Source: Lytechinus pictus
Lineage: Eukaryota
Length of the DNA stretch: 64,000 nucleotides
Direction: 5' to 3'
Assembly: GCF_037042905.1 (NCBI RefSeq)
Contig: NC_087250.1
Span: forward strand, 21,454,001-21,518,000
Below are positions 12,529 to 48,522 of this stretch, piece after piece. A model generated the notes under the pieces. It was not told where the DNA came from. It worked only from the letters and a program-made list of their open reading frames with translations, and searched no databases. Position 1 is the stretch's first letter, and every line of letters begins with the position of its first letter. The position numbers and the translations under genes were made by a program.

Positions 12529-12694
12529 GGGCCCGTTTCTTCACCCTGTTTACCGGACTTAAACAGTTGTAACTTTATCATTATGACAACTGCCAGTATA
12601 ACATGGCTCTGCGGTCAATCCCAATTAATGTAACCATGGTCATGATGGCCATACTTGAAAAGTTACCATAGTTATGTCTTTACGAAACGGGCCC
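12529..12694. mobile_element. PIF/Harbinger-like MITE (paralogous copies near 14187, 18986 and 25121)
   Basis: TIR GGGCCCGTTTC / GAAACGGGCCC. Confidence 0.7.
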
Positions 12695-12970
12695 CGGATG
12701 TTAGCAACGATGACACCCTAATTGTTATTCCCTCTCTATCTTTCTTTGTCGTTTCTTCCCTTGTGGTATAGTAGCAATTTACAAACTTACTCTGATTTAT
12801 ACTTACTTCTTTATGTATTGGAAATCCAACAGTTCTCGCAGCCTCCTTTGTAATAATGTGCGGCGGGCACAATAGACAACCACGGACCATGAAAACGAAG
12901 CAAACTCACACTAGCATGACTAGGGTGGTTACAAAACCACATAATGTAGTTGAAATTGACCAGTCATTCG

Positions 12971-13174
12971 ACAATATTTATTTTTATCATGTACAATGTA
13001 ACTTATATCTGTTCAAATGTTTGTACATGTATTTATTATTTTGTTCATGATTTATAATTTATTGTTTTATGTTTTTCAATTTTTATGTACGGACTTGCTG
13101 AAAAACAGCCTTGCGGCTGATAGCAGGTTTTTTTTATCCCGTATTTAAATAAATAAAACATACATACATACAAT
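12971..13174 (+). mobile_element. 5'-truncated retroposon 3' end with AATAAA and (ACAT)n tail (also 19428-19631)
   Basis: Flanked by ACAAT; absent from the paralog at 26417 (CATTCGACAATTGATT). Confidence 0.7.
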
Positions 13175-16084
13175 TGATTATTTAAAACGACGCTGCTCCT
13201 CTTCATGTAGCAAAATCTCAGAAGAAAATACTCTACAAACAGGCTACGAAATATAAGATCTCCCTGTTCGATTCTCGAATTAAAGTAAGGCGCGGAGAAA
13301 AATGAGGATTTTTGTTGATAAACTAAATGGTACACACCCGATTTGCTCCTCATTCTATCACGTGACCACATTCACAGTGATCACTCAACCAATCAAAATT
13401 GATTGCAACGTTTTCGTAACCAAATATGGTCGATTCATTTCGCAGATTATTTTATGACACCATGGTAAATAAACGTCCCCTATTATTAAAATCAGGGAAT
13501 ATACATTTTTTTTTTTTAATTTAATTTTTTTTTATAATGGTTACGATAATTGCTTATATATAATATTATTGGTAAATAAACGTCCCCTATTATTAAAATC
13601 AGGGAATATACATTTTTTTTTTAATTTAAATTTTTTTTATAATGGTTACGATAATTGCTTATATATAATATTCTACCTTGTTTTATTTCGTCTTATAGAT
13701 AAATATCAAATACTGTACATGCCTGAATTTATTTTATCTGCATAATTTCATTGTAATTATTTTGATCACATTACTTTGTTCTTCTGTTGAAAATGAAAAC
13801 AATAAATTGAATTGAAAAAAAAAATTGAAAACATGTATCATCCCGTGATGTTAACTAAACATCTAGAATGATAAATGTAATATAAATTATACCCGTTAAC
13901 GCAGGAATAGATTTGCACCCATCTTCCTCTCATCTTATTTTATTCACTCGTCTTCCTGCTCTTCTTTTTTCTCTTTTCTTTTCCTTCTTTTTTTTCTTTC
14001 TTTCCCTTTTTTTTTCTTTTTTTGCTCCGCCAAATAGGGGAGACCCGGGCCCTTCGGGCCCCCGCCTGGATCCGCCTATGCTCTCTATTGCTCTTGTCCT
14101 TCGCGGTATAATAACAAACATATTCCGTAATCTGCTGATGAATATATTTGAAATCCAAGAGTGCAGCCTGAGTTTGGAAGGAGCTGGGGCCCGTTTCTTT
14201 ACCGGACTTAAACAGTTGTAACTTTATCATTATGACAACTGCCAGTATAACATGGCTCTGCAGTCAATCTCAATCAAGGTTACCATGGTCATGATGATGA
14301 CGGCCATAATTGAAAAGTTACCATAATTATGTATTTATGAAACGTGCCTCGGATGTTAGCAACGATGACACCTTAATTTTCATTCCCTCTCTACCCTTCT
14401 TTGTTGTTTCTTCCCTTGTGGTAGAGTAGCAATTTACAAACGTATTCTGATTTATACCTACTTCTTTAAACAAACATCTACAATCATAAATATAATACAA
14501 ATTATACCCGTTAACGCAGGGATGGATTTCCGCCCTAACTTCTTACGATAATGCACACCTTGTTATTATGTTAAAGTAAAAAAAAAAGGGAAAATAAAGT
14601 AGACATATAATTTCAAAGTATTGCAGGCACCCCCTCCCCATCCTTCATAAAAGGAACTATAGCGTACAACTAAATTTGACATGAAACAAGGGTTAAGAGA
14701 AATAACGGCGACACCACGAAAAGTCAATAACAGAGATGAAAAATATTCCTCTTTCCCCCCCCCCCCATCTTGGGGCTTTTTCTTTATTTCCGATTTTTTT
14801 TTTACCATCAGCCAATCAAATGGAATGATGTAAATAGCCTTACACCGATGTCACAGTTGTTTTTGTCATTACAATGCACCATTTCTATCTATAACAAAAT
14901 CAGCCAATGAAATTGAAGGATTTCAGTAGCTTTAAACTGACTTAGCAAATTATTCTGTTATTTTAACAAGGTGCATAAAAGGGGCCACGGAGTGAATAAC
15001 TTTGACAAAAAATAATGTCGGTTTGGATTCGGTTTCGTTGTTCAAATGTTGCTTTAGATTTTCAAACGATAACTAATGTCAAAATAGCAGAAAGAATGAT
15101 AAAAAATATGAAGGTTTGAGGAAAACCCATAAAGATTAAGAAAGTTATTCGAATTTTAAGTTTTGCATTTGTGACGCCATAAACGAACAGCTGCATATAA
15201 CATGAAATACATGAATTTCATTTGTTTTTAATTGTTCCTGATGGCTCATTTTTTGAAATTTCTATTCATGATCGGGTGTGACATGATTTGTCTATTGATA
15301 GATACATGGTACAGTACAAACCGTTTTCAAATTTCAGATGAAAGAGGAGATTCTGAGCTTAAAAATGATAGGTAACTTGTCTATTGTATTATTGATTAAG
15401 TAATGATAAATCATCGATAAATCTCGGTTTCGTTTTTTCTGGGACGCACTGTATATTGACGTTGCTTTACATTATGATGTCAATTCTTTTTTTTTTTTCT
15501 AAAGACTTAACCGAATGAAGGAAAATATGGTGGCCCTGAAGGGACATCGGAAATATAGGCCAAATCGCGAATATTCACGACGAAATTCACGATGTCGTGA
15601 ATTTCGTCGCGAATTATTCACGACGAAATTCACGACGTCGTGAATTTCGTCGCCAATTTCGTCGTGAATTTGTTTTGCTTGCCTGGGCGGTATGCGGGTT
15701 GAAACCAATTCGTCTGCTGCTAATTCCTCCACTGCAGGGTCGATCTACATTCATTTAGTCTAATGCAATTCTGTCCATTAACTTTTCGCCTAACAACCAT
15801 ATGGTCCAATAAACATTTTGTCCAGTCATCACTTCGTCTAATCACCAGTTCGTCTATGACCATTTCGTCCCATAACTAGTTGGTCTAATATCAATTTTAT
15901 TTTCCTTAATTTCGCCCTATTTTTAACAAAAAAGGAGGGAAAAGAGAGGATAAAAAAAAGAAGAGGAGGAAGACGAGTTAAAAAAATAAGATGAGGGGAA
16001 GACATGGAAATAAAAAGAATCTTTCATGTCACTATATAAAAATTTTCGCTCGCGCTTCGCACTCGCATTGCCTGTTAGGTGTTC

Positions 16085-18108
16085 CAGGGGCGGATCCAGC
16101 CTTCACCAATAGGGGGGGGGGGCGGAATTATTTTTCAGCCATATTTTCCCCAACCGGCTGCTCGAAGATGATTTTTGGTTACTGTGAAGGGGTGGTCTTC
16201 TTAGCTTTATTCTTATAAATCAACATGAATATATAATATCATAATCCTTATTTATATAATGTGAGTGCGAAGCGCGAGCTAATTTTTTTTGGAAATCTTA
16301 TGTAATTTTTCCCATAATTTGAACATTCTGGGCAATGTTTGATTTCCTAAAAAAGATGTGTATGCAAATAAATAATTACTACGAACGCGAAGCGCGAGCA
16401 GAAATGAACTGGTGGAATAGGTACCTGTTAAAGACGTTATATATTTTAAAAATCAAATAATGCGAGCGCGATGCGCGAGCTGAATTTTTTTGACATTTTT
16501 ACTTAAAAATGGAAATTCTAAGGACTTTTTGTAACTTAAACAGAATAGGTATATAATAAACAATTGATGCGAGCGCGAAGCGCGAGCTGAAAATTTTTGA
16601 CATTTCTACATAAAGAATGGAAAATTTATTCAATTTTTGTAATCGTGAACAGGAAAGCTATATAACTAAACGATTGATGCGAGTGCGAAGCGCGCGGCGA
16701 GCGGAAGAAAATCGAGATTTAGACCTAAATACGGGACACTCTATTCATGTTTTGTAAATTTGGAAAAGAATGAGTAATTCCTACATTAATGATGCAAGCA
16801 CAAAGTGCGAGCAGAAAATTGTTTATATTGTGATCTGAAACTGGATAATGATTTAAATAGAGAACAAGTTGAATATCTGAATAAACATGCGCGTGCGTGT
16901 TTCATATTTAGACCTAGGATCTAGGCAATCTAAATACATCTTTTATCATGAAAATCAAAGCGAGCGCGAAGCGCGAGCTTAAACTATTTGATATTCCGAT
17001 CTGAAAAAAAGAGTCAATTTCAGCTCTATATTTCAAGCACTTTGTAAGAAAATTGTAAAGTGGATATGGATTGCACAGAGCTGATTTTTTTTTCATTATA
17101 ATTACTTTGAGTTTTGACATAGGACCGGTACATCCTTAGGACATGTAGGACATGCAGTGGCGGACCGTGACCCGGAGGAGACAAAGAATTGGAGGGGCAC
17201 AGCATTATTCACAAACAATACAGTGCCCCTCCAATGCTTTGTCTCCTCCGGGTCACGGTCCGCCACTGAGGACATGTCATCATATGAAAATGATGAATGT
17301 CTTCCTATTCCTCTTGCTAAGCGCGAGATGAAACAAAAGGGACAATTCAATTATTAAATTAATATCTTATTCATTAAGGCCTAATGAGGGCGTGAAGTCT
17401 GATGATATTATGGCCTGAAAACTGGACATTTCAAGCACTTTTGTAATTATAAATAGGATGCATCAGTTAATATATTTTAACAATTAATGCGAGCGCAAAT
17501 TGCGAGCCTAAATCTTTGCATTGTCATGAAAAGGGGATTGTATAATCAATATTGAGACATACGATCAAAATGCGAGCGTGTAGCGCTAGCTGATACGTTT
17601 TGACAATCAGACCTGAAAAGGGATATTTTGAAAACTTTATGGAATACACGAAAATAATAGGTACCTGATAAATCGAAATTTGAAGGCGCGCAGCGCGAGC
17701 GGAAAATGTTAATATTCAGACCATAAAACTGTCATATTTACAGAGCACTTTTTAAAAATCAATTTGTAAATCACGCAAAATAATGAGTTTGATTTTCGAG
17801 ATAAAATATGTTTTGTATATTGACTTCCAAACTTGATATTTAAACTCCATATTGAACAAGATATGAAAATCACCTAACAGGCAATGTGAGCGCGAAGCGC
17901 GAGCGAAAATTTTATATAGTGACATGAAATATTCTTTTTATTTCCATGTCTTCCCCTCATCTTACTTTATTCACTCGTCCCGATCCTCCTCTTCTTTTTT
18001 TCTACTCTCTTTTCCCTCCTTTTTTTTCTTTCTTTCCTTTTTTCCTTTTTTTTGCTCCGCCAATAGGGGGGCGGGCCCCTCGGCCCCCTCCCCCTAGATC
18101 CGCCTATG
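16085..18108. mobile_element. hAT-like element (CAGGGGCGGATCCA...TAGATCCGCCTATG) with GCGAAGC-motif repeats
   Basis: Terminal inverted repeats; same family as 9918-14080. Confidence 0.75.
17155..17268. mobile_element. 114-bp hairpin hAT-like MITE, 8-bp TSD AGGACATG
   Basis: ~46-bp near-perfect TIR CAGTGGCGGACCGTGACCCGGAGGAGACAAAG...; TSD 17147-17154 and 17269-17276; truncated copy at 11899-11973. Confidence 0.9.
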
Positions 18109-20833
18109 CATATGGATAGCAGTGGACATCGTTCTGTCGTTTCAATGATTTTTTTTTCAATTGGTCTAATGCCAACTCGTCTGCTTTCATTTTGTCTACC
18201 ATCAGTTCGTCCACTATCCACATGATCTAACTGCCATTTTGTCTAATAACCAAGTTGGTCCAATTGCCATTTTCCATATGCCATTTGGTCTAATTGAACT
18301 AAGTGTTAATTGGGCGAAATTAAGGAAAATAAAATTGATATTAGCCCAACTAGTTGTGAGACGAAATGGTCATAGACGAACTGGTGATTATAGACGAAGT
18401 GATGACTGGACCAAATGGTTATTGGACCATATGGTTGTTAGGCGAAAAGTTAATGGACAGAATTGCATTAGACTAAATTAATGTAGATCGACCCTGCAGT
18501 GGAGGAATTAGCAGCAGACGAATTGGTTTCAACCCGCATACCGCTCAGGCAAGCAAAACAAATTCACGACGAAATTGGCGACGAAATTCACGACGTCGTG
18601 AATATTCAAATTGACGACGAAATTGACGACGAAATTGGCGACGTCGTGAATTTCGTCGCCAATTTCGTCGTGAATATTCGCGGTTTGGTCTATTTGCGAT
18701 GTCCCTTCAGGGCCACCATAGGAAAATGTATGCCAAATAACGTGCGTCTTCACCACAACCTCACCCCCTCTCTCTTTATTTCCCCTCTCATCCCTCCACC
18801 CTTTCATGTCTAGGCCTATTTGTTTACCTATCTATCTATTTTCCCTCTCCCTTTCCCAATCATTTTACTTTGTATCTCATCTTTATTGTTCTGTCCTTTG
18901 GAGTATATAATAACAAACATATTCCGTAATCTACTGATGAATATATTTGAAATCCAACAGTGCAGCCTGAGTTTGAACAGGAGCTGGGCCCGTTTCTTTA
19001 CCCTGTTTACCGGACTTAAACAGTTATAACTTTATCATTATGACAACTGCCAGTATAACATGGCTCTGCGGTCAATCCCAATTAATGTAACCATGGTCAT
19101 GATGGCCGTAATTGAAAAGTTACCATAGTTGTGTCTTTACGAAACGGGCCCCGGATGTTAGCAACGATGACACCCTAATTGTTATTCCCTCTCTATCTTT
19201 CTTTGTCGTTTCTTCCCTTGTGGTATAGTAGCAATTTACAAACTTACTCTGATTTATACTTACTTCTTTATGTATTGGAAATCCAACAGTTCTCGCAGCC
19301 TCCTTTGTAATAATGTGCGGCGGGCACAATAGACAACCACGGACCATGAAAACGAAGCAAACTCACACTAGCATGACTAGGGTGGTTACAAAATCACATA
19401 ATGTAGTTGAAATTGACCAGTCATTCGACAATATCTATTTTTATCATGTACAATGTAACTTATATCTGTTCAAATGTTTGTACATGTATTTATTATTTTG
19501 TTCATGATTTATAATTTATTGTTTTATGTTTTTCAATTTTTATGTACGGACTTGCTGAAAAACAGCCTTGCGGCTGATAGCAGGTTTTTTTTATCCCGTA
19601 TTTAAATAAATAAAACATACATACATACAATTGGTTATTTAAAACGACGCTGCTCCTCTTCATGTAGCAAAATCTCAGAAGAAAATACTCTACAAACAGG
19701 CTACGAAATATAAGATCTCCCTGTTCGATTCTCGAATTAAAGTAAGGCGCGGAGAAAAATGAGAATTTTTGTTGATAAACTAAATGGTGCACACCCGATT
19801 TGCTCCTCATTCTATCACGTGACCACATTCACAGTGATCACTCAACCAATCAAAATTGATTGCAACGTTTTCGTAACCAAATATGGTCGATTCATTTCGC
19901 AGATTATTTTATGACACCATGGTAAATAAACGTCCCCTATTATTAAAATCAGGGAATATACATGTATCATCCCGTGATGTTAACTAAACATCTAGAATGA
20001 TAAATGTAATATAAATTATACCCGTTAACGCAGGGATAGATTTGCACCCGAACTTTCTACGATAATGCACACCTTGTTAAAGTAAACATAAAGTAAAATA
20101 AAAGTAGACATATAATTTCAAAGTATTTAAGGCACCTCCTCCCCATCCTTCATGAAAGGCGCTATAGTATCCATCTAAATTGTTTCGTTAACATGAAACA
20201 AGGGATAAGAGAAATCACGGCGACACCACGAACTGTCAATGAAAGAGATTTTAAAAAATATCACTCCTTCCCTCCCATTTTGGGGCTTTTTCTTTATTTT
20301 CGATTTTTTGTTTGTTTTGCCCTTACTTTTTCTTTAAAGAAAGGGCATTTTATCCTATTTTGCCCCTCTCCTAAGAAATCTTGGATCAGCCATTGCGTCA
20401 ACCCAGTCCCCACCCCGAACGTGAGAAACCCTTACCCTCAAAATATGATATGTTGGTTGCAAGAACAGTTACAGCTTTCGTTTTTTCCTAATATCTCTGT
20501 GTTCGACAATATAAATTTGACATAATAATCTTTAGCAAACATCAAGTCCCAAATCGCGTACTTTACAGAGTTGGGTAAACTTACTGATTCTAGGATAAAT
20601 ACCAATTTAACCTTAAAGAACTGTTTAAAGTTCGTGAAAATTGTCCAATTTAAGTTTTTATGACAGATAAGGAACAGCCCGGCAAACAGAAAGTGCAATC
20701 TCAGCAGATCAATATCTGTCATTATTTTATTGCCTTGTAGTATTTATGGGGGCATGATATTCTTTTGTGGAAAGGAAAATTTGCAAAATATATGCTGAAG
20801 CATTGTATTTCCATACCTCTTTGTGAATATATA

Positions 20834-22911
20834 CACAACAAAAAAAGTAAGTCCCCCCTAAATCAAATTGCTGTAACTTTTGAACGGAATTATTTTGAGA
20901 TATGATATTTCGTAGGTATTTTTCTACACTCATTAAACAACTCCTGGGGAAAAATGGGATTGATCGGTTGAGTCATGCATGAGTAATTAAAGATTGAATT
21001 AAAAATGAACATTTTTGAAAGTCACAAGAGTCGTTTTTCAGATTGTGCAATTACAAAGTTGGGCAAAAGTTGTTTTTAGGTGAAATTTATGGTGTTAATG
21101 CTGTTTTACTATCCATCATTTAGCCACTCCACACTCAATTTTGATATCGTATGTTTATGGTTGAGTGAGCACAATGTATTGCAGGGGCCGTGGAAGTGGG
21201 GGGGGGGGGCTTCAGCCCCCCACTTTTTTTTCCAAAAGCATGTACAAAAATGTAAAAATGACCATACGATTGTGATTTTTTGCATGGTCAGCCCCCCTAC
21301 TTTTGGCTCAGCACCCTCACTTTGAAAACCGTTCCCCGGCCCCTGTATTGTGACGTATCATCATAGGGGGTTTATGGTAGTATTCTCTACAACTTGTTAG
21401 ATCATGTTAAAATTTGAAAATGTTGGTGGCTCCCCCGATTATAGGCCCCTCCCCCATTTTAAAATTCTGGATCCACCACTGATTTGTCCATAAATTAAAC
21501 TGATCCTGAGAAATTGTTAGGAAAAGAATACATTTATGCAGTATCCATTCCTAAGTTTTCGAATGTGCTCGCTCAACCATGAAAATATTAAAAGTTCGGA
21601 AAGTGTGTGGTGATAGAAATGGTGGATGATAAAAACAACAGCAATTAAAGTCACATTTGAAACCGAATTTGCCCCCAAAATTCACTTTATTACCCATTAA
21701 AATGAGTCTGTGACATTGAAAATACCCCTTTTCCCACTTTGATGCGTGCTCACTCATCCATAAATAAAAAATCGATTTATTTTTTGCACAGAATTCCGCC
21801 CATAGGTTGATAAACATTACTGCCAAATGACATTGCTAAAGACAGCCTTGAAAAAAAGTTCCACCATATTGAATAAGGGGTTACTTATTCTTAAACATAT
21901 GCACCCATAATGTACACAATGTCTATGAGAGAGGAAATCAGAATTTTAACAAATGTGAAATGAGGGTTTGTTTCATGCACGATTTTTGTTACTTCTGCCA
22001 ACAGTTATTTCCTGAAACTTCGCACATGGCATCAGAGTAATACTATCCAAAAGGTGCGCACACCAAAATAACCATTCGATACGGCACAGAGTGGGGCCAA
22101 GGCCTTGAACTTCCTTCTCATTTGCATAATTTTCGAATATCGTGTGCTCACTGGTGCATGATACATCGGGATTTTCATAAAAATCTAATCAAATGAACTA
22201 TGCAAGGAGGTTTGTGACAGATATCCATAGTTACAAATTGTATTTTTTCCAATAACGTAAAAAAGAGCAAATCACATTCCACATGTTCATTCAAGCGTGA
22301 ATGTTTAATTAAACGCCTTTGAATCATTGAAGCATGTTAATTGGTCATGAACATAACGAAAAAGTTGAGAAAAGATCATTTTCAGTTACCAAAATGAAAC
22401 AATACTTGCCTATGATATTTGAAAATCATATTTTTTGTTTTCAATAAATGTTCATTGAACCGTGAAACGATGAACATTGTTGAAGATACTCTTCCCAAAA
22501 ATAACTGTCATCATATTCGATCATTTTTATTGATAGAAATGTGTAAAAAAATCAAATTATAGCAAATTTGGACTTGTGTTTATTCAACCGTGAAATTTAG
22601 CCTAAAAAGTTGTATTGTCTTTTAGAAAGTACCTTTTACAGGCCTTGTGACTATTTTTCATGATGAGAATGTGGAATTCGTTCCAATAAAATGAAATCAA
22701 AGTCGTGATATTTGGCTTGTGACTTTTGAAAAGTGACATTTTTGCCTTCTGACGGTGCTCACTAAAGCATGACGTAAAATACGGACATAACATTTACTCA
22801 GAGGGTAGTTTATAAAATTACCTACACGCTCATGTAAAAATATATTAAAAACTCGCATTGGTTCGGAAATTATTGATGTTTGTTTAAGGGGGGACTTACT
22901 TTTTTTTTGTG
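20834..22911. mobile_element. ~2.1-kb non-autonomous Tc1/mariner-type element, TA TSD
   Basis: TA|CACAACAAAAAAAGTAAGTCCCCCC ... GGGGGACTTACTTTTTTTTTGTG|TA; empty site at about 27645-27670; second copy at 56584-58428. Confidence 0.85.
21182..21345. mobile_element. hAT-like MITE with 5-bp TSD TATTG, nested in the 20834-22911 element
   Basis: TIR CAGGGGCCG / CGGCCCCTG; absent from the copy at about 56910. Confidence 0.8.
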
Positions 22912-22962
22912 TATATATTAAAAAAAAAAAATGATCCCTCAACTTGCCGCTTGAAAATATGT

Positions 22963-23385
22963 GGGGATGTCGTGGCCTAGTGGTTAAGACTCTCGTCTTT
23001 GGTTCGATTCCCAGCCATGGTGTGTTTTCCTTCAACAAGAATGGTTTTCCACATTGTGTTGCACTCAACACGGGTGGGTGTTACATGAAGCTGTTTGCAA
23101 ACAGGTGAAGCTTTTTTACGTGCTAAATAATAATCAATGAACATATCTAATGGTGAATATCAGTTACCACAATGAAGGACCATCACCTGTGCTGAAAGTA
23201 ACTCTTAACTTACGGACAGTCTAGTGAAACGGCCCCCTGGTGAGGTAAATGCGTACCGACAGGAAGTACTTTCCCCCCCAAAAAAAACCTGTGAGCACCG
23301 GAATCGATAGACTAGGTTAGTGGGGAATATAGGAGCGCCATCATCACCTAATGATGTCAATATTTGCGCTACATAAATCCTATAT
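22963..23385 (+). mobile_element. tRNA-derived SINE carrying a Harbinger-like MITE (about 23072-23238); paralog at 27708-29280
   Basis: A-box TGGCCTAGTGG and B-box GGTTCGATTCC; body TTCCACATTGTGTTGCACTCAAC...GTGAGGTAAATG-GTACC; tail GCGCTACATAAATCC. Confidence 0.7.
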
Positions 23386-24026
23386 TTTTATACATTTTGG
23401 GAAAAAATAAGAGGAGGTGCTTGTCTGGAAAAAAATACATTTTGGTCAAAAAAGAAAAAAATACAAAAAAAATGAAATGATGTTATTCATAAAGAAAGTG
23501 GCAAGCAAAATATATAACAATGATTTTGAAAAAATTAATAAACAAATGAAAAAAAACTGTCATGATTTTATAATGGTTAAGAAAGTTCCCCGTCAGAAGA
23601 ATGTGTAATCAGCAGGAATTGAGCAAGATCATGTTTCATGAAGTCTTTTTATAATAACAAAAAAAAAAAAAAAATTCAAAGCAAGTTTACTATCAGCCAA
23701 GCAAATGGAATTATCTAAATAGCCTAACACCGATGTCGCAGTTGTTTTTGTCATTACAATGCACAATTTCTATCTACATGTATACAAAATCAACTAATGA
23801 AATTGAAGGATTTCAGTAGCTTAAAACTAATATAGCAAGTTATTTTGTTATTATAACAAGGTTCATGAAAGGGGCCACTGAGTGAATGACAACTTTGACA
23901 AAAAATAATGTCGGTTGGGATTTGGTTTCGTTGTTTAAATATTACATTAGATCTTCAAACGATAACTAATGTAAAAATAGCAGAAAGAATAATAATAAAA
24001 AATATAAAGGTTTGAGGAAACCCATG

Positions 24027-24333
24027 GGCCCATATTCTGAAGTCAGGTTTAACTTAAACTCAGGTTTAAAGTTGTGGTTTAAGTATGGGAAGCCAAAAGT
24101 ATCATTTTTTTTTAGTTTTACGTTTCTTATGTTTACTGTGCTCTTTCCTGATTCATCGATGGTGAAGACAATAATCTGATATACTTCCTAGACAATTATG
24201 AATGATTTGAGAGCCAAATGAGCTGAGATATGATATCTCTATCGTTAGTGATTTATGTAACAATTGGCTTCCCATACTTAAACCACAACTTTAAACCTGA
24301 GTTTTAGTTAAACCCGACTTCAGAATACGGGCC
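24027..24333. mobile_element. PIF/Harbinger-like MITE, 3-bp TSD ATG
   Basis: ~70-bp TIR GGCCCATATTCTGAAGTC... / ...GACTTCAGAATACGGGCC; empty site at 15121-15140. Confidence 0.85.
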
Positions 24334-25411
24334 ATGAAGATTAAGAAATTTATTTGAATTTCAAGTTTTGCATTGTGACGTCATAAACAAACAGCTGCAT
24401 ATAACATAAACTACATGAATTTCATTTGTTTTTCATTGTTCCTGATGGCTCATTTCTTTTATTTCTATGCATAATCAGGTGTGACATGATTTGTCTAATG
24501 ATAGATACATGGTACAATACAAACCATTTTCAAATTTCAGATGAAAGAGGAGATTTTGAGCTTAACAATGATAGGTCACTTGTCTATTGTATTATTCATT
24601 AAGTAATGATAAATCATCGATAAATCTCGGTTTCGTTTTTTTCTGGGACGAACTGTATATTGACGTTGCTTTACATTATGATGTCAATTCTTTTTTTTTT
24701 CTAAAGACTTCTTTTCAAAATCTTTGATCCATTTTCTTAATGACTTTAACAATAAGCTTGAAGTACTCTACTTTGGATTTACAGAAAGCTTTTTTTCTCG
24801 AGGTGAATTGTCCATTTAAACTTTGTACATGTAACCGAACCTGCCGAATGGAGGAAAATGCTATGCAAAATAACTTGCGTCTTCACCACAACTTCACCCC
24901 TTCTCTCTTTATTTCCCCTCTCACCCCTCCACCCTTTCATGTCTAGACCTATTTATTTACCTTTTATTTATCCATCTATTTCCCTCTTCCTTTCCCAATC
25001 ATTTTACTATGTATCCCATCTTTAATGCTCTGTCCTTTGGAGTAAAATAACAAACATATTCCGTAATCTACTGATGAATATATTTGAAATCCAACAGTGC
25101 AGCCTGAGTTTGAAAGGAGCTGGGCCCGTTTCTTCACCCTGTTTACCGGACTTAAACAGTTGTAACTTTATCATTATGACAACTGCCAGTATAACATGGC
25201 TCTGCGGTCAATCCCAATCAATGTAACCATGGTCATGATGGCCATAATTGAAAAGTTACCATAGTTATGTCTTTACGAAACGGACCCGGATGTTAGCAAC
25301 GATGACACCTTAACTTTCATTCCCTCCCTACCTTTCTTTGTTGTTTCTTCCCTCTTGGTATATAGTAGCATTTTACAAACTTACTCTGATTTATACTTAC
25401 TTCTTTATATA

Positions 25412-26270
25412 CTGTACAAGCTGTAATTTTCGCGGGGGTTTTATTTTCGCGGATTTCGCGAATTGCCGATCGGCCGCGAATTTAACAACACGCGAAAATA
25501 TTGACACACTTGTTAGTCAGTGCCAATGTCCCCAACAGCAAAGCTTTGCTATTGAAAACATACTGTGTAGTGAGAAAATGGTGATATGCACCTCTATATG
25601 TACAAAAAATAAGGCTTAGAAAGTACAGTTAGTGATTCAAAAAGTTAGCTAGAATTTCACTTTTTTTAATTTCTCAACAAAATCAGAGCCTAAGGTATTT
25701 TCTAACATTATTTTATCAATATCTATACACTCATTGTAATATTAAAATGTATTTTCCATGAAATAATTTGATATTATTGTCATCTGATTGACTCTATTAC
25801 ACACGTATGGCAGCTATTTGCATACTCATTAATATTCATAAGTCACATGACCAGAGCTTTTACAGTTGAAGATTCTGTTCACAAAATTCCACATTTTTGC
25901 AGTTTTACCAACTTTTTGAAAAATTAATAGAACAAAACACAAATTCTAAAGATTGCTTAACCCTATAAATTACAGATCAAACTGTGGCATGATGAATTTT
26001 CAGATCTAAAGGTAAAAAAAATGAAATTTAAACCACCTTTTTCCACAGTTTGTAACTGTTTTTACAGGGACATATTTATGTACAAAACACACATCAGCAT
26101 GGGACTTTGAGGAGTAGAGATTTGCACGTGATTAGCACTAGTTTTGCTTCTTTTAAATGCTGTGGAAATGTTTTCTACATCTTCCGATCGCGAATTTAAC
26201 AACCCGCGAAAATGTCGGGACCCCCGCGATTCGCGAAAAATTCTGTACGCGAAAATAACAGCTTCTACAG
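25412..26270. mobile_element. TA-TSD MITE with TTCGCG-rich ends (Tc1/mariner/pogo-like)
   Basis: TA|CTGTACAAGCTGTAATTTTCGCG ... CGCGAAAATAACAGCTTCTACAG|TA; empty site at 12807-12828 and 19264-19285. Confidence 0.85.
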
Positions 26271-28054
26271 TATTGGAAATCCAACAGTTTTCGCAGCCTC
26301 CTTTGTAATAATGTGCGGCGGGCACAATAGACAACCACTGACCATGAAAACGAAGCAAACTCACACTAGGGTAGTTACAAAATCACATAATGTAGTTGAA
26401 ATTGACCAGTCATTCGACAATTGATTATTTAAAACGACGCTGCTCCTCTTCATGTAGCAAAATCTCAGAAGAAAATACTCTACAGGCTACGAAATATAAG
26501 ATCTCCCTGTTCGATTCTCGAATTAAAGTAAGGCGCGGAGAAAAATGAGGATTTTTGTTGATAAACTAAATGGTGCACACCCAATTTGCTCCTCATTCTA
26601 TCATGTGACCTCATTCACAGTGATCACTCAACCAATCAAAATTGATTGCAACGTTTTCGTAACCAAATATGGTCGATTCATTTCGCAGATTATTTTATGA
26701 CACCATGGTAAATAAACGCCCCCTATTATTAAAATCAGGGAATATACATGTATCATCCCGTGATGTTAAACAAACATCTAGAATGATAAATGTAATATAA
26801 ATTATACCCGTTAACGCAGGGATAGATTTGCACCCGAACTTCCTACGATAATCATGATAATGCACACCTTGTTAAAGTAAACAAAAAGTAAAATAAAAGT
26901 AGACATATAATTTCAAAGTATTTAAGGCACCCCTCCCCATCCTTCATGAAAGGAGCTATAGTATCCAACTCAATTGTTTCTTTAACATGAAACAAGGGTT
27001 TAGATAAATCACGGCGACACCACGAACTGTCAATGAAAGAGATTAAAAAATATCACTCTTTCCCTCGATCCCATCTTGGGGATTTTTCTTTATTTTCGAT
27101 TTTTTTTTTTTTTTTTGCCCTTACTTTTTTCTTACAAGAAAGGGCATTTTATCCTATTTTGCCCCTCTCCTAAGAAATCTTGGATCAGCCACTGCGGCAC
27201 ACCCAAACCAACTCCTATCCCCCTCCCCAACCCGAAAGTGAGAAACCCTTACATACCCTCAAAATATGTTGTATTGGTTACAAGAACAATTACAGCTGTC
27301 GTTTTATTCTAATATCTCTGACTTCGACAATATAAATTCAGCAGAATAAGCTTTCATTTGCAAACATCAAGTCACAAATCGCGTGCTTTACAGAGTTGGG
27401 TAAATATACTGATTATTGTATAAATAGCAATACGGTTATAAACTGTTTAAAGTTCGTGAAAATTGTCCCAATTAAGATTTTTTGATGACAGATAAGGAAC
27501 AAGCGGTTAAAAAGAAAATGCAATCTCAGCAGACCAATATCTATCATTTTTTATTGCCTTGTAATATTTTTTGGGGGAATTATTTTCTTTTGACGAAAGG
27601 AAAACTTGCAAAATGTATGGTAAAGCCTGTTATTTCCTTAACTATTTGTGAATAAATAAATGATCCCTCGACTTGCCCCTTGAGAATCTGCATCAATAAA
27701 TATATGTGGGAATGTCGTGGCCTAGTGGTTAAGACTCTCGTCTTTGGATCGATTCCAGCCATCGTGTGCTTTCCTTCAACAAGAATTTTTTTTCCACATT
27801 GTATTGTACTCAACCCGGGTGGGTGTTTCATGAAGTTGTTTGCAAGTAAAGAGCGACTTTAAGTAAAACCGGTGAAGCTTTCTTCCGTGCAAAATAATAA
27901 TCAATGAAGATATCTCATGGTGAATATCACTTACCACAATGAAGAACCACCAACCGTCCTTAAAAAGTAACTATTAACTTACGGACAGTTAAGTGAAACG
28001 GCCCCCTGGTTAGGTAAATGGGTACCGACAGGAAGTACTTCCCCAAAAAAGCTG

Positions 28055-32934: not shown

Positions 32935-32993
32935 TATATATATATATTTGTGTGTGTGAGGGTGTGTGTATGTATATATATACACACACACAA

Positions 32994-33042
<49 letters not shown>

Positions 33043-33058
33043 CCTATATATATATGTT

Positions 33059-33146
<88 letters not shown>
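32935..33146 (+). repeat. (TA)n/(TG)n compound microsatellite
   Basis: Direct dinucleotide repeats. Confidence 0.95.
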
Positions 33147-33148
<2 letters not shown>

Positions 33149-33194
33149 GTTATACATGTACAACAGCTTTGGCAACTCTTTTTATTTTAAATAT

Positions 33195-33829
33195 TGTAAA
33201 GAAATGAATGAAGAGAACAATGGTTGGCGTAGCTTAAATCAAGGTTCCCCAGAGCTATCTACCCTTTGGAAAAATTGGTGATGCCGAAACCACTAGACCA
33301 CAGAGGTATGATGTAGTCTGCAGGCACAGACCCTCATTGGAACTTTGATCAACAAGTGTGCCTCCACGCAAAGACTAGCACATACAAAACTTGCTGTTCC
33401 AATACAGCAATTCGCGAGAGAGCCTTCAGTACACAAGGCATGAGTAGGCTCCACATTCAGACCCTTAACTCGAGCGAAGGGTTTGCCCAGCAGACTAGGT
33501 ATGATGTACGGTATACGTGTACTGTATCAAAGCAATAGCTTTGATCCAGCTGAGGCATGGCGGCTTGTCATTGTTCAAAACCCACCTTCACCCGACAAAG
33601 GAAATTATAATTGGTAGAGTGTCGAAAATCTGTCTATCTGACGGTCAATCGGATCGGGGTCGCCCTAGCCACTAACCCGTCTCTGTGGTCTAGTGGCTAA
33701 GGCACCGGCGTTCAAAGCTGGGGTCCCGGGTTCGATTCCCGGCAGAGACATTTTTTCGGCATCACCAATTTTTCCAAAGGGTTGATTTAAGCTACGCCTA
33801 CCATTGTTCTCTTCATTCATTTATTTACA
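33195..33829. mobile_element. Non-autonomous DNA transposon with TGT...ACA termini and 4-bp TSD ATAT (Ginger-like), with a tRNA-like gene in its right arm
   Basis: ATAT|TGTAAAGAAATGAATGAAGAGAACAATGG ... CCATTGTTCTCTTCATTCATTTATTTACA|ATAT; arms match over 75-110 bp. Confidence 0.8.
33679..33750 (+). tRNA. tRNA-like gene, 72 nt, anticodon TCA (33712-33714), short variable loop; possible opal suppressor or transposon-borne pseudo-tRNA
   Basis: Acceptor GTCTCTG/CAGAGAC, D stem GTCT/AGGC, anticodon stem CCGGC/GCTGG with loop GTTCAAA, T stem CCGGG/CCCGG with loop TTCGATT, discriminator A, then TTTTTT. Confidence 0.7.
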
Positions 33830-33942
33830 ATATATATATATATATTTATTGCGCAGAGTAGGCCTAGATGTTTTACACATCGTTTCGGCCTCGTAATCAT
33901 TAAAGGGGGAACAAACATGCACGATACGAGGCTGTGATAATT

Positions 33943-38199: not shown

Positions 38200-41004
38200 T
38201 AAGCATGCATTCCCAGGTTCGGCAGTAACTTTGTAGCTTATGGAAGTCAATAAAATCGTGTTTTTGCCTGGTAAACCTATTTGGGTTCAACCGAGGGTCT
38301 GGTTCGGATTCTATAAAAGTAGAGACCCTGGAACTTTACTGCTGCATCCAATATGGTATTAAATATAAACACCTGGATGATCATAGCCTGGGAAGCGGGA
38401 TTGATGTTGGATATTTTGTACACCATAAGCAGAACCCCTGGAAATTAGGTTGGTATGTTAAATGTACAGATTTGACACAAATCTTCTTCATTTTTGGACA
38501 GAAAAATGTTTATGTAATTATTATTATTGTTGTAATTTTTAAAGACTAAATTTAGTTCTGTGTTGGAATAAATCTTTCTTTTTTCTTGTCATCTTTTTTC
38601 TTCTGAACAAAATCCCCTGGCATCATGGTCATTTGAAGTGAAACCCTTTTTCTTGGTCTTTTTAACAAACCAGCACCCCTTATTTCTAAACCTTTCCCAG
38701 GGCAGTGTGATCAATCATTCAGTTATTGAAATATGATTGAAATATGATTGAAATATTACAAAAGAGAACAATTACATTTAGCTGGTAGACCAAGCGGCTA
38801 TTCGATCCAGGAACGATTTGCTCAGCCGTACGCATGAATGATCATTCAATACAAAATAATGCAAAGAAAAGGAACGACCCTCGATAAATTTGATGCTGTG
38901 CTCATTTATTATATATATCTTTATTTTTCCACGGCATTTGCCGGCATGCATGCAACCACTAATTTCGGGGAAGGTAAATAGTTAAGAATTATAACTACAA
39001 TAATTCCTTTGATTTGCTCGTATCTGTATAGACAGCCACAATAATTTAGTTACTCATGAAAGATTGAAAAAAAGGAATAAAAGGCAGTAATACTCCCTCC
39101 GAAAGTATCTCAAAGGTGTGTATAAATTGATAGGAAGACAAAGCTTAAAGCATAGCCAGCTTTATCAACCTTTTTGTTTCAAATTAACTTATTATCCATG
39201 ATATTTTTTAAAGTCTCCTGGGATCACGGGGTGTCCTTCCCCATATCTTAAAAATAAAAACTATCATATATCTATTATTTTTTTTTCTTACAGTACCCTA
39301 TGAAATGTTTCCTTCCACTCATAAAAAAGATTGGTCGAAGTAAAAAAAAAAAATTGGTAAATATTTGTCCGATAAATAAAAGCGGTCTATACCAACCAAA
39401 TTCTAATAGATTTAAAACAAGAATAAAGTTGTCAATTTTGGCAATTTCTTTTTGATCGGATACATATAATCGATATAATCTGGGCCAATTCTTTTAAAAT
39501 TGTGATCAATAATTTCATTCTTGAAAGTCTATTGTAACCAAAAGTTGAATAAAACATTGAAAACGAAAAATAAACATCCTCCAGATTGTCCCGGTGTAAA
39601 ATTATAATGGGCCAGTCGTTAGTGTTATATACTCTCTGTTTAACATTAAATTTGCATTGGATTTCAAGGAGCGTATAAAAAGTCATAGTAAGGTACAATA
39701 AAGGCAATCTCAAACTGTTTACAATAATTTTTCTTAATAACCTTCCACAAGTCTGGGTTCCTTTATTGAAAATCCGTAGGGTATATGTATGCAGTAACAC
39801 AATATGTCATAAAACATGTCATAAAATGTCATAAAACAAATACAATACTCCAATACATTTTCAAAGTGAAACAAACACTCCTTAGCAAGTAATATATACA
39901 CACAGACTTAAGGCACCAAAATGAAACGAAAATAGTAAGATTGCGACGTATTTGCTAAGTTTCATACCGCCAGATTTTTGCTTGAATTTTTCTTCTATTT
40001 AAAACATGATGATACTCTGTAATTTCAAACTTATCTCTTCATGTTTATTATTGCTTTTGTTTTTCTTTCGCCAAATATATTTGGTCAAAATCTTAATGAT
40101 ATGTCTTTTGTGGTATATTATTTTATTTGGATCGAAATCACAAAGAGAATTGTTAATAGTTTTAAATAGAATTGCGACCCAAAAAGAGAGTTTTTTAACT
40201 TTGAGAGAAAAATCAGACATGTCGATAGATGATAGTGATGAATTATAATATATTTGGATTGATGTTTTTGTTTTTATCATTCATAATGTTCTATTTTTTG
40301 GCATGCAGGAAGTTGGTCTACATGTCAGAAAGCGTATTATAATATATTCTAAACTCATTTGATAGGATATGAAATCGGTCTAGTTTGGTCTACAATACAC
40401 TTCGTCTATTATTGTATCTATTAGATTGAGTGGGTATTTTCTAACATAATAATTAGAAAATAAACCCGTTGTAAAAAAGGTTATAACAATGAAATATAAT
40501 CGGACCAAGTTATCGCTATCAAGCGACAAGATGAGACAACCCATATGGTAGAAAAGGGCATCCTAGATCCATAAAAGGTAGGGTCCATTTAACCCAATGT
40601 TTAGTGAAAATTATAACAAAGTTTTCGAACTCTCGGGTAAAATGGACCCCTTAAATTTCGTGAATTTAGGATGCTTTTTGCTTAAACGCATTTGGGTATT
40701 TGCGACTGCCCGACCCAAAGCGATAATCTGTTGTGATGGCACAAACCGTGTGGACAAGGGACTTGTACAAACAATAGTGATTGATCCGGTCAATCTCATC
40801 TCTATCGATTTTTTATTCTTGTGATATTTTAAAATAGGAAATTTGTTCTTAGTAAATACAAATGAGCTCAACGATTTTCAAGGCAAGAAATCACGTAACA
40901 CCTGTGTCTGGGGCCACCTGTCTATACTTAAAACCTTCCTACAGTGGCCACTATAAAAACCAGGCATTTTTTCGTCGGTATGTCTATACAAGAACCTGTC
41001 TATA

Positions 41005-41567
41005 AGGGCAAAGAATCTTCACGTGAAAATACTGATAATATTGTACTAAATGTCGTGAAGGAGAAGTTGGGAGTCAATATCGGTATCGGCGACATCGACC
41101 GAAGTCACAGAGTTGGGCCTATCCGTAACATCCAACGTAGTAATGAGAGTGTCCAGGGTTCGTCGTCTGCTGCTAGTGCTGTTACTGACACCTCATCTTT
41201 GAGTTCTTCAGCTTCTTCTTCGACGTCATATGCCAGCAAGTTAACACCGTCACCATCTACCTCGAACAGGGATCGTCTTCATCATAGAGCAAGAATAGTC
41301 AAGCTCACCTCGTATCGTGCTCGCCAAACCATTCTCCTTTCTCGACGGAAGCTGAAAGGTACTGGAGTTTCCATCTCAGAAGATCTAACGGCTGAAAATT
41401 ATGGGATACTCAAAACAGCACGACAGTCGACAAAGGTCACAGCTTCATGGTCGAGTGATGGTCGAATCTTTGTGGCGTTACCGGCTTCAAATGGCAAAAC
41501 TGTCAAGAAACTCGCTAGATCACTAGAGGAAGCGAAGCAACTCTCATCATCTACTAGATCAAAATAG
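41005..41567 (+). pseudogene. CR1/L2-type LINE ORF1, C-terminal part (5'-truncated)
   Basis: ENTDNIVLNVVKEKLGV..DIDRSHRVG..RIVKLTSYRARQTIL..RRKLKGTGVSISEDLT..WSSDGRIFV; typical non-LTR ORF1 motifs. Confidence 0.8.
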
Positions 41568-42888: not shown

Positions 42889-43390
42889 ATGTCTTCTAAC
42901 TGTAGCTGTGTATTATGTAGCAGGCAATGTAACTTAACTTGTAATGATTGTTTCTTATGTAGGCCTTTAAGAAATGAACAAGAATCTGAAACTAGTTTTG
43001 ATGAAAATTATGGGTACTTTGAAAATTTGATAAATAATATTATACCCCTACGGAATTTGGAAATGCATTGAAATTACATGGTGAGAAAAATCTGATTTTG
43101 GCAAATTTCAATTGCCGTAGTTTAAAGTGTAATTTTGAGACATTCACTAATTGTCTTGATGAAATTGGTCAGAAATTGTCATTTATTGGTACTTGTGAAA
43201 CATGGCTCAATAATGAGGAAGAACATGAATGTATGATTCCAGGTTATACATTTGTAGGCAAACACAGACATAACAAAAGAGGAGGAGGCGTAGGCATGTA
43301 TATAAATGATTATATAAAATATATAAAACGCCCAGACTTGGTCACATTTATTGAAAATATCGAAAGCCTGTTCATTGAAATTCAAAATTT
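42889..43390 (+). pseudogene. LINE ORF2 N-terminus, APE endonuclease domain (frameshifted and truncated)
   Basis: NFNCRSL..FIGTCETWL..IPGYTFVGKHR..RGGGVGMYI..ESLFIEI motifs. Confidence 0.8.
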
Positions 43391-43900
43391 CTTGGTGGAA
43401 GCTGAATGGTGAGGTGAAGCTCTGTCCTGCAGGAAAATCTGTCCTTGAAAGAGGGAATGTAGCTGGAGGTCAGAATCTCTTGATACTGAATGCTGTCCAC
43501 GTACTCTGCAGATCTTTGTTGCACCACCAGATCTGATGTAGCCCCAAGATCTGCAGAGAAGATGGGACCATTTACAGCATTAGGTTTTTAACAGATTCTG
43601 ACCTCCAGCTACATTCTTACCTACCTACAAGGGCAGATTTTCCAGCAGGATGGAGCTCTTTGTCACACGTCAGCTTCCACCAAGAAATTTATTCAGCACA
43701 AGAAGATCAAATGTCTTGAGAATAGGACAGCACAGTCTCCAGACATGACTTTTATTGAGCATGTATGAAGCAGAATGAATGAGAGCACATGGAAACGAAG
43801 CCAAATAATGTGGGGGGAGTTGTGGAACACTCGTGAGGCCATCTTTTATGCCATTCTGATGCCTACATCAACAAACTGGTACGACCCCCTCCCAAGACCA
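43388..43900. pseudogene. Tc1-family transposase fragments, two copies in inverted orientation
   Basis: Plus strand GQIFQQDGALCHTSASTKKF..AQSPDMTFIEHV (DD34E region); 43388-43525 is a diverged reverse complement of about 43546-43690. Confidence 0.75.
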
Positions 43901-46024: not shown

Positions 46025-48522
46025 CTAGTATTATATATTTGTTAGAAGTATGGATAGACATGATAGAGACGAAGGATTTTCGATTTAAATCTGATACATT
46101 TAAAGGAAATGTTTTTAACAATAAATTTGTACGAATTCAAGGGAAATGCATATTTAACCAAAAGGTATGTGAAAATAATATTTACAGAGTGAAAAAAATT
46201 ATGGATTATGATAGAAACTTAAGGTCATTTTCGTACTTCCAAAGACAGGGTTTAAACATAAATGATTTTCATTTGATAGAGTCAATTTATAAAACTATTC
46301 CAGTCAGCTGGAAACGAAATATGAAAATAGATAGCAAAGAGGCTTCTCTTAGGGAAGGAATATCATTTATATCTGAAAAAGAATTTGTCAATAGATCTAG
46401 AGGAGTTAGTATCCAAAAGGGGGGGGGGGGGGGGTTGGGAGGTAGAACATCACTTTTTGTCTCACCTGCATAGCAGAGTGAGACTATAGGCGCCGCTTTT
46501 CCGACGGCGGCGGCGGCGGCGTCAACACCAAATCTTAACCTTAGGTTAAGTTTTTGAAATGACAGCATAACTTAGAAAGTATATGGACCTAGTTCATGAA
46601 ACTTGGCCATAAGGTTAATCAAGTATTACTGAACATCCTGCCTGAGTTTCATATCACATGACCAAGGTCAAAGGTCATTTAGGGTCAATGAACTTAGACC
46701 ATGTTGGGGGAATCAACATCAAAATCTTAACCTAAGGTTAAGTTTTTGAAATGTCATCATAACTTAGAAAATATATGGACCTAGTTCATGAAACTTATAC
46801 ATAAGGTTAATCAAGTATCACTGAACATCCTGCATGAGTTTCACGTCACATGACCAAGGTCAAAGGTCATTTAGGGTCAATGAACTTTGGCCGAATTGGG
46901 GGTATCTGTTGAATTACCATCATAACTTTGAAAGTTTATGGATCTGATTCATGAAACTTGGACATAATAGTAATCAAGTATTACTGAACATCCTGTGCAA
47001 GTTTCAGGTCACATGATCAAGGTCAAAGGTCATTTAGGGTCAATGAACTTTGGCCAAATTGGGGTATTTGTTGAATTACAGCCATAAATTTGAAAGTGTG
47101 TTGGTCTAGTTCATAAAACTTGGACATAATAGTAATCAAGTATCACTGAACATCCTGTGCGAGTTTCAGGTCACATGATCAAGGTCAAAGGTCATGTAAG
47201 GTCAAAGAACTTTGGCCACGTTGGGGGTATTTGTTGAATTGCCATCATATCTCTATGAGTGTATTGGTCTAGTTCATAAAACGTGGAAATAAGAGTAACC
47301 AAGTATCACTGAACATCTTGTGCGAGTTATAGTAGTTTTCAAAATCAGCACTGCTGCTATATTGAATCGCGTGATGCAGGTGAGACGGCCAGAGGCATTC
47401 CACTTGTTATCTTTTTTTTCTCTCTTATCATTTCATACATCTTGTTAATATTTCATTTTGTAATTGCTGAAACGCATTAGTATTAATTTCAAGTATCTTT
47501 GAAGTTTGATGTACAGGTATAATTTGTATGATTATACTTGTTATGGTTTTATTGTATAATTTATAATCATGTTTCAAATAATATGTACAACTTGCTTATG
47601 GAATGTGAATGTGTATTTTGATTTGAGAGAATTCAATAAAACATCCTTAAAAAATATTTTAAAAAATCGAAAAGAAGTTTTGTATTTTTGCAGATTTCAG
47701 TCGTTTTATTTTTCATTAGTTTGAAATCTTTTTTAATCGATTACAATATTGATTAGAGGAAGAAACATATCGCCATCTATTTTTGGAATGTGAATATGCT
47801 TGTTTGGTTTGGGATAATTGTAAGAAGATGTTTGGTTTTATTTCGACGGGCAATTTAAGCTGGGAGGAAATTCTTGTAGGTGTAGAATTAAATGACGAAG
47901 GAAAGGAACGTTTAGTCAATCATTTTCTAATCTTTGTTAAATTTTTAATCTTCAAAGGGAAGGAAAAGGGTGCACTTATAACCATGGATGAAATTAAAAG
48001 GAAATTTAAAGAAGAAGAATGGGAAGAAAGAAGGCTGGCGCTAGGTAGAGGTAAGATGTCTCTACATTTAAGGAAATGGGAAAATCTGAATTAAAAGAAT
48101 ATATAGGGAGAGTGAGGCAAAGGTATATATACAACGAGAGACAAAACCACACAAAAAATACAAAAATAAATAAATACGGAGAATTGTAGTCCCTTCCATG
48201 TAGAGTATAGGCATAAAAAGGGGAGGGTGCTCCTAACCTAGGGACCGGGGGGGGGGGTTGGGAGGTAGAACAACACTTTTTATCTTTTTTTTTCTCTCTT
48301 ATCATTCATACATCTTGTTAATATTTCATTTTGTAATTGCTGAAACGCATTAGTATTAATTTCTAGTATCTTTGAAGTTTGATGTATAGTTTGTATAATT
48401 ATATTTGTTATGGATTTATTGTATAATTTATAATCATGTTTCAAATAGTTTGTACAACTTGCTTATGGAATGTGAATGTTTATTTTGATTTGAGAGAATA
48501 CAATAAAACATCCTTAAAAAAA
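46025..48522 (+). mobile_element. L1/Tx1-type LINE remnants: post-RT ORF2 piece (46039-46390), C-terminal zinc-knuckle piece (about 47680-48094), duplicated 3' UTR ending in AATAAA and poly(A)
   Basis: NNKFVRIQGK..IPVSWK and ETYRHLFLECEYACLVW..LRKWENLN* motifs; 3' UTR at 46415-47655 and again at 48245-48522. Confidence 0.75.
46454..47408 (+). mobile_element. Helentron-type element, copy 3, inserted into a T run of the LINE 3' UTR
   Basis: Empty site at 48265-48290 (CACTTTTTATC) shows insertion in a T run without a TSD. Confidence 0.85.

Follow-up and report, generated by a model that had tools for sequence, protein, structure and literature searches.

The Locus and Its tRNA-Shaped Module

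The window, that is, the whole analysed stretch of 64,000 nucleotides of Lytechinus pictus (contig NC_087250.1, positions 21,454,001 to 21,518,000), contains an insertion of a repeat with a unit of 406 bp, which bears a tRNA-shaped module. The features of this insertion are as follows; unit positions are counted along the 406-bp repeat.

32937..33146, no strand: (TA)n/(TG)n microsatellite at the left junction
33141..33305, minus strand: inverted, 5'-truncated arm ending at 3' end site 2 (unit position ~389, tail included), with the 3' half of the tRNA deleted
33314..33497, no strand: later MITE-like insertion of 184 bp with 8-11 bp terminal inverted repeats and a 9-bp target duplication (empty site in the paralogous copies L006 and L007)
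33513..33833, plus strand: forward arm running from unit position 1 to 3' end site 1 at ~340; 19 bp are deleted after the tRNA
33611..33678, plus strand: antisense leader, a decayed reverse complement of the tRNA 3' half and D arm without the anticodon arm (shuffle test)
33679..33750, plus strand: tRNA-shaped module, unit positions 167-238, anticodon TCA (ARAGORN, Rfam, fold)
33710-33713, plus strand: loop bases 32-35, GTTC, within the tRNA module
33751..33756, plus strand: T6 Pol III terminator, retained in families A and B (sequence)
33791..33796, plus strand: GCTACG motif, ~35 bases before end site 1 (read by eye)
33831..33845, no strand: (TA)n at the right junction

ARAGORN called a single tRNA in the window, at 33679-33750 with the anticodon tca; the Rfam model RF00005 matches it with 57.1 bits (E 1.1e-9), and its fold has z = -3.45. 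Judging from ARAGORN and Rfam, this tRNA is real. The preliminary description of the locus had read from the letters a cloverleaf with stems of 7/4/5/5 bp including two G-U pairs, and the pair list of the family agrees with it; the intact A and B boxes, the anticodon loop GTTCAAA, the variable loop of 4 nt and the T6 run were likewise found in the sequence as described. The resemblance of the D and T arms to tRNA-Glu also held on comparison with the host tRNA-Glu genes (19-20/21 identical positions in the variable loop and T arm).

The module shares its UCA anticodon with tRNA-Sec, which has a long variable arm and an extended acceptor/T branch. In comparison with tRNA-Sec and opal suppressors, the module is 72 nt long and has a 4-nt variable loop, G32 and a mosaic body of Glu and Arg parts; moreover, its anticodon differs among subfamilies, which sets it apart from tRNA-Sec and from both natural and engineered opal suppressor tRNAs. 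The earlier statement that it is not tRNA-Sec was correct: the variable loop is short, and the host tRNA-Sec was found at two other loci (76.9 bits), the only ones among 53 scored candidates that passed the RF01852 cut-off. These two matches (L426 and L427, on C2 and C25) have equal scores and possibly represent a duplicated or unplaced haplotype copy. G32 is rare in tRNAs, and position 32 is a pyrimidine in the commonest sequence of each host isotype compared. A tandem cluster of tRNA-Lys with degenerate copies having a TTA (ochre) anticodon was noticed at L147 and overlapping loci (C4, 9.70-9.74 Mb; 8 ARAGORN calls over overlapping loci).

Other parts of the window contain three to four copies of a block with ~6.4-6.8 kb spacing, 91-98% identical in parts (12000-27100), and frames that by eye resemble fragments of LINE ORF1, AP endonuclease and C-terminal domains (40932-41567, 43038-43412 and 47753-48094). 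A 191-aa open frame on the minus strand (61981-62556) has, by eye, the look of leucine-rich repeats and is probably an exon of a host gene.

The 406-bp Repeat and the Structure of Its Insertions

The window belongs to an 812-Mb genome. Exact patterns gave 2,009 matches for the T arm, 2,025 for the anticodon arm with the GTTCAAA loop and 2,269 for the 3' flank, and the anticodon-arm pattern with any loop gave 2,052 matches, the loop differing in 10 of the 100 first listed. The 406-bp unit, of which the tRNA forms one module, has about 2,000 copies, both in head-to-tail arrays (~49 consecutive units in 20 kb, and at least 49) and in dispersed insertions.

The insertions were surveyed at 59 loci chosen by the 3' flank, with one insertion counted twice. 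Their free 3' ends fall within unit positions 335-350 or 385-400 in 89 of 107 cases, which gives two fixed 3' ends ~50 bp apart, and 81 of these 89 ends run into simple repeats. The 5' ends are scattered over unit positions 1-377 with a mild cluster at 169-179 (7/107), and many copies extend past the tRNA into the preceding unit. Both orientations occur at 30 of the 59 loci and a single orientation at the other 29. A Tc1/mariner-like transposase frame (by eye) adjoins one insertion (L003, 1940-3020).

The carrier had been taken for a DNA transposon in the preliminary description, and this part of it did not stand. The inverted repeats of the window copy (33188-33242 and 33782-33836; 55 nt, 95%), the feature that speaks for a non-autonomous transposon with terminal inverted repeats bearing a tRNA, were found in this copy alone and are produced by the 5'-truncated inverted arm of the tandem unit. 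Fixed terminal inverted repeats are absent: each locus has its own arm length, the two ends do not coincide in unit position, nearly half of the loci have one orientation only, and the arrays reach the lengths given above, so that a transposon or MITE of this class was rejected and is, in our opinion, extremely improbable as the carrier. The sole element with terminal inverted repeats found here is the 184-bp insert, which holds no tRNA and is missing from the paralogous copies. The window insertion recurs together with its right flank at L006 and L007, 70 and 320 kb away, which means that the region is segmentally duplicated. Having a single whole tRNA, the window copy could not itself make a circle of the kind considered below.

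Two classes of tRNA-bearing retroelements were also tried as the carrier. A tRNA-derived SINE was rejected on account of the 5' ends, which, apart from the small cluster, are not at the tRNA head, and a TRIM of the Helenus type on account of the insertion maps, in which tandem and inverted units are joined to (TA)n. Helenus, Ajax and Cassandra TRIMs (PMC10886601) and tRNA-derived SINEs are similar to the unit as non-autonomous retroelements with a captured Pol III small-RNA gene, and Cassandra is described as being transcribed from one gene copy to the next, as is proposed here. In contrast to these TRIMs, neither an LTR-PBS-PPT layout nor a short target duplication is seen in the insertion maps; in contrast to TRIMs and SINEs, the tRNA is internal and not a 5' head, and its cloverleaf is kept by compensatory change. 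According to the same source, most Helenus elements keep mainly the boxes (PMC10886601).

A Probable Penelope-Like Carrier

Penelope-like elements (PLEs) insert as partial tandems with an inverted truncated copy and a tail, preferring (TA)n (PMC8557442), and the tail marks two start sites of reverse transcription (PMC11167929). The unit shows the features of a non-autonomous PLE, namely partial tandems with an inverted 5'-truncated copy, two 3' ends with a tail between them and microsatellite targets, and for these reasons it matches PLE architecture. Very probably, the carrier is a non-autonomous Penelope-dependent element. Judging by this architecture, which is seen directly in the insertions, the repeat was likely inserted by the proteins of a Penelope-like (Neptune-type) retrotransposon. 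The tandems, inverted copy, two 3' ends and (TA)n targets are shared with Neptune, Naiad and derivatives such as MRC1; the unit differs from them in having no ORF, in carrying a tRNA and in its tail of ~50 bp, theirs being 30-40 (PMC8557442, PMC11167929).

PLEs with a C-terminal GIY-YIG domain are plentiful in the genome (142 matches), and A units sit in (TA)n beside several of them. No autonomous partner with an alignable shared end was found in 50 loci taken around these 142 matches. The GCTACG motif is exact in 3 of 9 distinct hammerhead-bearing PLE ends, another 2 having it with a single mismatch, and a 5-bp stem with a 29-nt loop around end site 1 is common to the unit and one PLE family (both by eye). 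Several C-terminal GIY-YIG families (L235, L244, L248, L119, L138 and others) combine open reading frames of 900-1,026 aa with hammerheads close to the 3' end, and different families of this type nest in the same (TA)n tracts.

The unit is also similar to animal non-LTR retrozymes, described by Cervera and de la Pena in 2020 (PMC7229834) and by Li, Clavereau and Pollet (bioRxiv 10.64898/2026.07.22.740005), which are non-coding tandem units of a few hundred bp, occur as monomers to large multimers, are linked to PLEs and have strongly folded RNA, which RtcB circularises in vitro (same sources). The defining feature of retrozymes is a type I hammerhead carried by every unit, whereas here an intact tRNA module with an antisense leader stands instead. 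Neither the Rfam scan nor a core pattern applied to both strands of A, A0 and B revealed a hammerhead in the unit; as a control, PLE loci were scanned with a stricter pattern, and 4 of the 6 gave clear hammerheads. A hammerhead-like stem after the tRNA was rejected because its core is non-canonical, and the retrozyme class itself was rejected as the required hammerhead was not found.

Subfamilies and Conservation of the Module

The divergence from consensus is 2.8% in the young family A, 1.4% in the arrays and, in the two older subfamilies, 11.4% in A0 and 8.1% in B. The anticodon of B is TCA with G37 in 11/11 copies, and A36 is present in 22/24. A0 has the anticodon TCT, with T36 in 7 of 8 readable copies and 5 of 6 distinct loci; its copies were chosen by a flank marker, and 3 of 11 were unreadable. 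TCA may have arisen twice, or TCT may be a reversion. No further family was found among 13 matches to a variant pattern, and metagenome and viral contigs contained nothing that matched a D-arm pattern.

Comparison of the stems of A and B revealed 8 substitutions, none of which breaks a pair; in 3 pairs both partners have changed (simulated P 0.001). The two families are identical at 62/72 positions of the tRNA, 94/159 (59%) of the upstream part and 73/103 of the downstream part. Positions 32-35 (GUUC) are identical in A, A0 and B, and positions 36 and 37 differ. Among dispersed A copies, which are not independent of each other, 83 differences were counted in 4674 nt of tRNA versus 201 in 7431 and 282 in 10255 nt of the flanks. 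The anticodon, with 5 differences in 191 against ~2.7% in the flanks, is kept no better than they are. The only loop variants common to all units of one insertion are U33A and A36U, both of which spare positions 32 and 35; U33A, found in one four-unit insertion, creates a perfect GAUC palindrome. Of the full-length sampled copies, 27/53 are fully intact and have the terminator. The 2,025 exact loop matches support TCA as the consensus, and the stems of A and B support compensatory pairing.

Ancestry and the Question of a UGA Suppressor

The ancestry of the module is mosaic, with a Glu-like D loop, variable loop and T arm and an Arg-like acceptor. A single tRNA-Arg(CCT) parent was considered and rejected: the acceptor of B fits it (7/7 and 6/8), but the variable loop and T arm match tRNA-Glu as given above. 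Totals for the candidate parents tie at 48-53/72, host tRNA-Gly being outside the comparison; because of this tie and the mosaic matches, parent-to-element statistics were set aside. The host tRNA-Glu genes were collected with a looser pattern, the stricter first one having given no match.

One of the two functions suggested in the preliminary description was a mobile UGA-suppressor-like tRNA. The mobility is supported, and the suppressor part is weakened by the TCT of A0, the U33A insertion, the anticodon rate of 5/191 and incomplete identity sets. According to this explanation, terminated Pol III transcripts would mature, be charged and read UGA for a partner element or the host; charging with Trp or Gly would be most plausible, to judge from G1-C72, A73 and C35. 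It is favoured by TCA in the young family and B, by the intact terminated copies and by folding, in which the cloverleaf forms when the leader is short. Against it, A0 spread with TCT, G32 is present, and the module does not complete the identity set of any of Arg, Glu, Trp and Gly: an on-paper comparison with a review (PMC9976931) shows the absence of A20 and base 36 for Arg, C34 for Trp and C36 for Gly; for Gly in higher eukaryotes, the review notes a lack of data. A conserved in-frame TGA was not seen by eye in the PLE frames viewed, which are a partial survey, and roughly a thousand intact genes, compared with tens per host isoacceptor, would be harmful if active. A working suppressor is decidedly improbable, and the UGA-reading anticodon is probably a by-product. 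Two related candidates were rejected: a partner PLE with a conserved in-frame TGA, since the two related copies with TGA have it at different, though neighbouring, codons, and a SECIS, seen by eye only in B and not kept in A.

RNA Folding and the Antisense Leader

The RNA of the unit folds as a rod (z = -5.7), and 60 of the predicted rod pairs are common to A and B, which have 132 and 124, respectively; the 7 compensatory pairs of the rod are not above column-shuffled controls (mean 7.5). The 68-base stretch just before the tRNA can be aligned with the reverse complement of the latter, except that it has no anticodon arm, and the alignment scores of 55.0 and 55.4 (A and B) exceed the maxima of 48.4 and 48.5 in 1000 shuffles. 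Mismatches between the leader and the tRNA favour G-U on the plus strand 12 to 3. With at least 15-30 leader bases, the cloverleaf is lost in the predicted fold and only the anticodon hairpin remains. The leader was also considered as a primer-binding site and rejected in this role, because it mirrors the genomic T run and not a CCA end.

In the minimum-energy fold of a transcript running from the tRNA of unit n to that of unit n+1, the 5' half of the former joins the 3' half of the latter (hybrid acceptor P 0.99-1.00), although the hybrid acceptor also forms with a shuffled leader, so this probability does not discriminate; it disappears once the leader reaches 20 nt or the trailer is long. 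A pre-tRNA with a bulge-helix-bulge is favoured over two separate cloverleaves by 18.7 kcal/mol in A and B, compared with -2.5 +/- 2.2 and -7.8 +/- 1.8 kcal/mol for the same balance after the leader was shuffled 40 times. In these calculations, the leader would move the balance by >20 kcal/mol towards the bulge-helix-bulge form. In A and B, the strand-swapped conformer is less stable than the minimum by 7.8 and 11.5 kcal/mol, respectively, the swap probability is 0.02-0.06, and P(32:35') is 0.00.

Proposed Circularisation by tRNA Splicing

We suggest, with a probability of about 0.4, that the tRNA module serves both as a promoter and as a tRNA-splicing substrate, through which a read-through transcript would give a unit-length RNA circle. 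Pol III would start at the tRNA of unit n, occasionally pass its T6 and stop after the tRNA of unit n+1. The antisense leader is predicted by folding to tie the inner tRNA halves into the rod, which leaves the 5' half of n and the 3' half of n+1 to make up one tRNA body. The anticodon arms would then exchange strands to form a bulge-helix-bulge in which GUUC pairs with GUUC, bases 36-38 are the bulges, and G32-C35' acts as the proximal pair, the reverse of the usual anticodon-intron pair. TSEN would cut at 37/38, and RtcB would close the 406-nt 'intron' into a circle. Finally, reverse transcription of the RNA into (TA)n would begin at the two fixed sites and produce the tandem and inverted copies. 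In this scheme U34 and C35 are fixed by the helix and position 36 is free, hence TCA would be a by-product. The element may tentatively be regarded as a ribozyme-free counterpart of retrozymes, excised and circularised by TSEN and RtcB as a tRNA 'intron' with the UGA-reading tRNA as waste; that these enzymes replace the ribozyme is a possibility somewhat short of even.

The model would account for the kept cloverleaf, the fixed positions 32-35 and free 36-37, the leader sparing the anticodon arm, the missing hammerhead and the arrays. TSEN catalytic-domain matches were found at two loci of the host genome, and recognition of the tRNA body has been described for TSEN (PMC10485636). The module resembles substrates of TSEN/RtcB splicing and the sources of tricRNAs (PMC6614914, PMC10485636) in its predicted 37/38 cuts, 3-nt bulges, 4-bp helix and strong proximal pair, and differs from them in that an entire mobile unit, built up from a tandem pair of tRNA genes, is the predicted 'intron', and in having the proximal pair in reverse (G-C). 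In tRNA splicing, both the bulge of 3 nt and the spacing of 6 nt are invariant, a swap of the proximal pair from C-G to G-C has little effect, its strength outweighing its identity, and an overly strong helix lowers splicing (PMC6614914). The geometry of a TSEN substrate (a tRNA body, a distance of 6 nt between base 32 and the cut, a 3-nt bulge and a strong proximal pair) can be built in the model and is not the minimum-energy fold.

Private variants are shared within insertions much more often (39 in 11,391 nt) than between them (2 in 54,016), a pattern that fits a circle or a uniform multimer alike; the 41 recurrent within-insertion differences fit multimer templates equally well, and linkage across the predicted junction is confounded by distance. 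Several points speak against the model, among them the results given above on the energy and low probability of the swapped conformer, on the hybrid acceptor, on the rod pairs and on the search for a PLE partner. Pol III must pass T6, plus T5 in A. Both middle pairs of the modelled helix would be U-U, and circles are inhibited in flies when positions 2 and 3 are fully unpaired (PMC6614914). Only three lineages carry the argument, and G32 may have been left behind when G31 of tRNA-Glu slipped in register.

Two other explanations dispense with splicing. The captured tRNA may be a passenger from which a PLE-dependent repeat gains only the A and B boxes for Pol III, or open chromatin, as with Helenus or Cassandra among LTR elements, the templates being linear multimers and the cloverleaf surviving because the families are young. 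The intact boxes and T6, the precedents of Helenus (PMC10886601) and high-scoring tRNA-derived repeats (PMC8450103), and the mild 5'-end cluster agree with this, as does the finding that hammerhead cleavage is unnecessary for insertion in vitro (PMC11167929), so that processing may be dispensable. However, the acceptor and anticodon stems of A and B have changed only by pair-keeping substitutions beside upstream flanks that are 59% identical, the other 5' ends are scattered with many copies running past the tRNA, and the antisense leader and G32 are left unexplained. The second function suggested in the preliminary description, a tRNA-shaped Pol III promoter or insulator only, does not account for the compensatory acceptor-stem pairs or the leader. 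We consider this passenger role somewhat unlikely.

Alternatively, RNase P and RNase Z could cut multimeric transcripts at the cloverleaf in the manner of mascRNA, giving defined RNAs in place of hammerhead cleavage. This would explain the kept acceptor and T stems, the indifference to the anticodon and the missing hammerhead, but the cloverleaf is predicted to be lost in a long RNA with 15-30 leader bases, excision of the tRNA would strip it from the template while copies run through it, and G32 is again unexplained, which makes such processing rather improbable.

Conclusions

In the literature, Repbase and supplementary repeat catalogues being outside the scope of the search, we found neither a tRNA-bearing PLE derivative nor a mobile element that tRNA splicing turns into a circle. 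Whether or not the splicing model holds, the presence of some thousand UCA genes that are intact and terminated (27/53 of ~2,000) raises the question of how stop-codon read-through is avoided in this organism. If the model is true, thousands of 'suppressor' and 'Sec' tRNA calls in this genome would be annotation noise, and the unit would offer a natural design for circular-RNA expression. A selfish element would then have swapped its ribozyme for the tRNA-splicing pathway of the host, a circular-RNA route that the literature searched did not describe for any mobile element.
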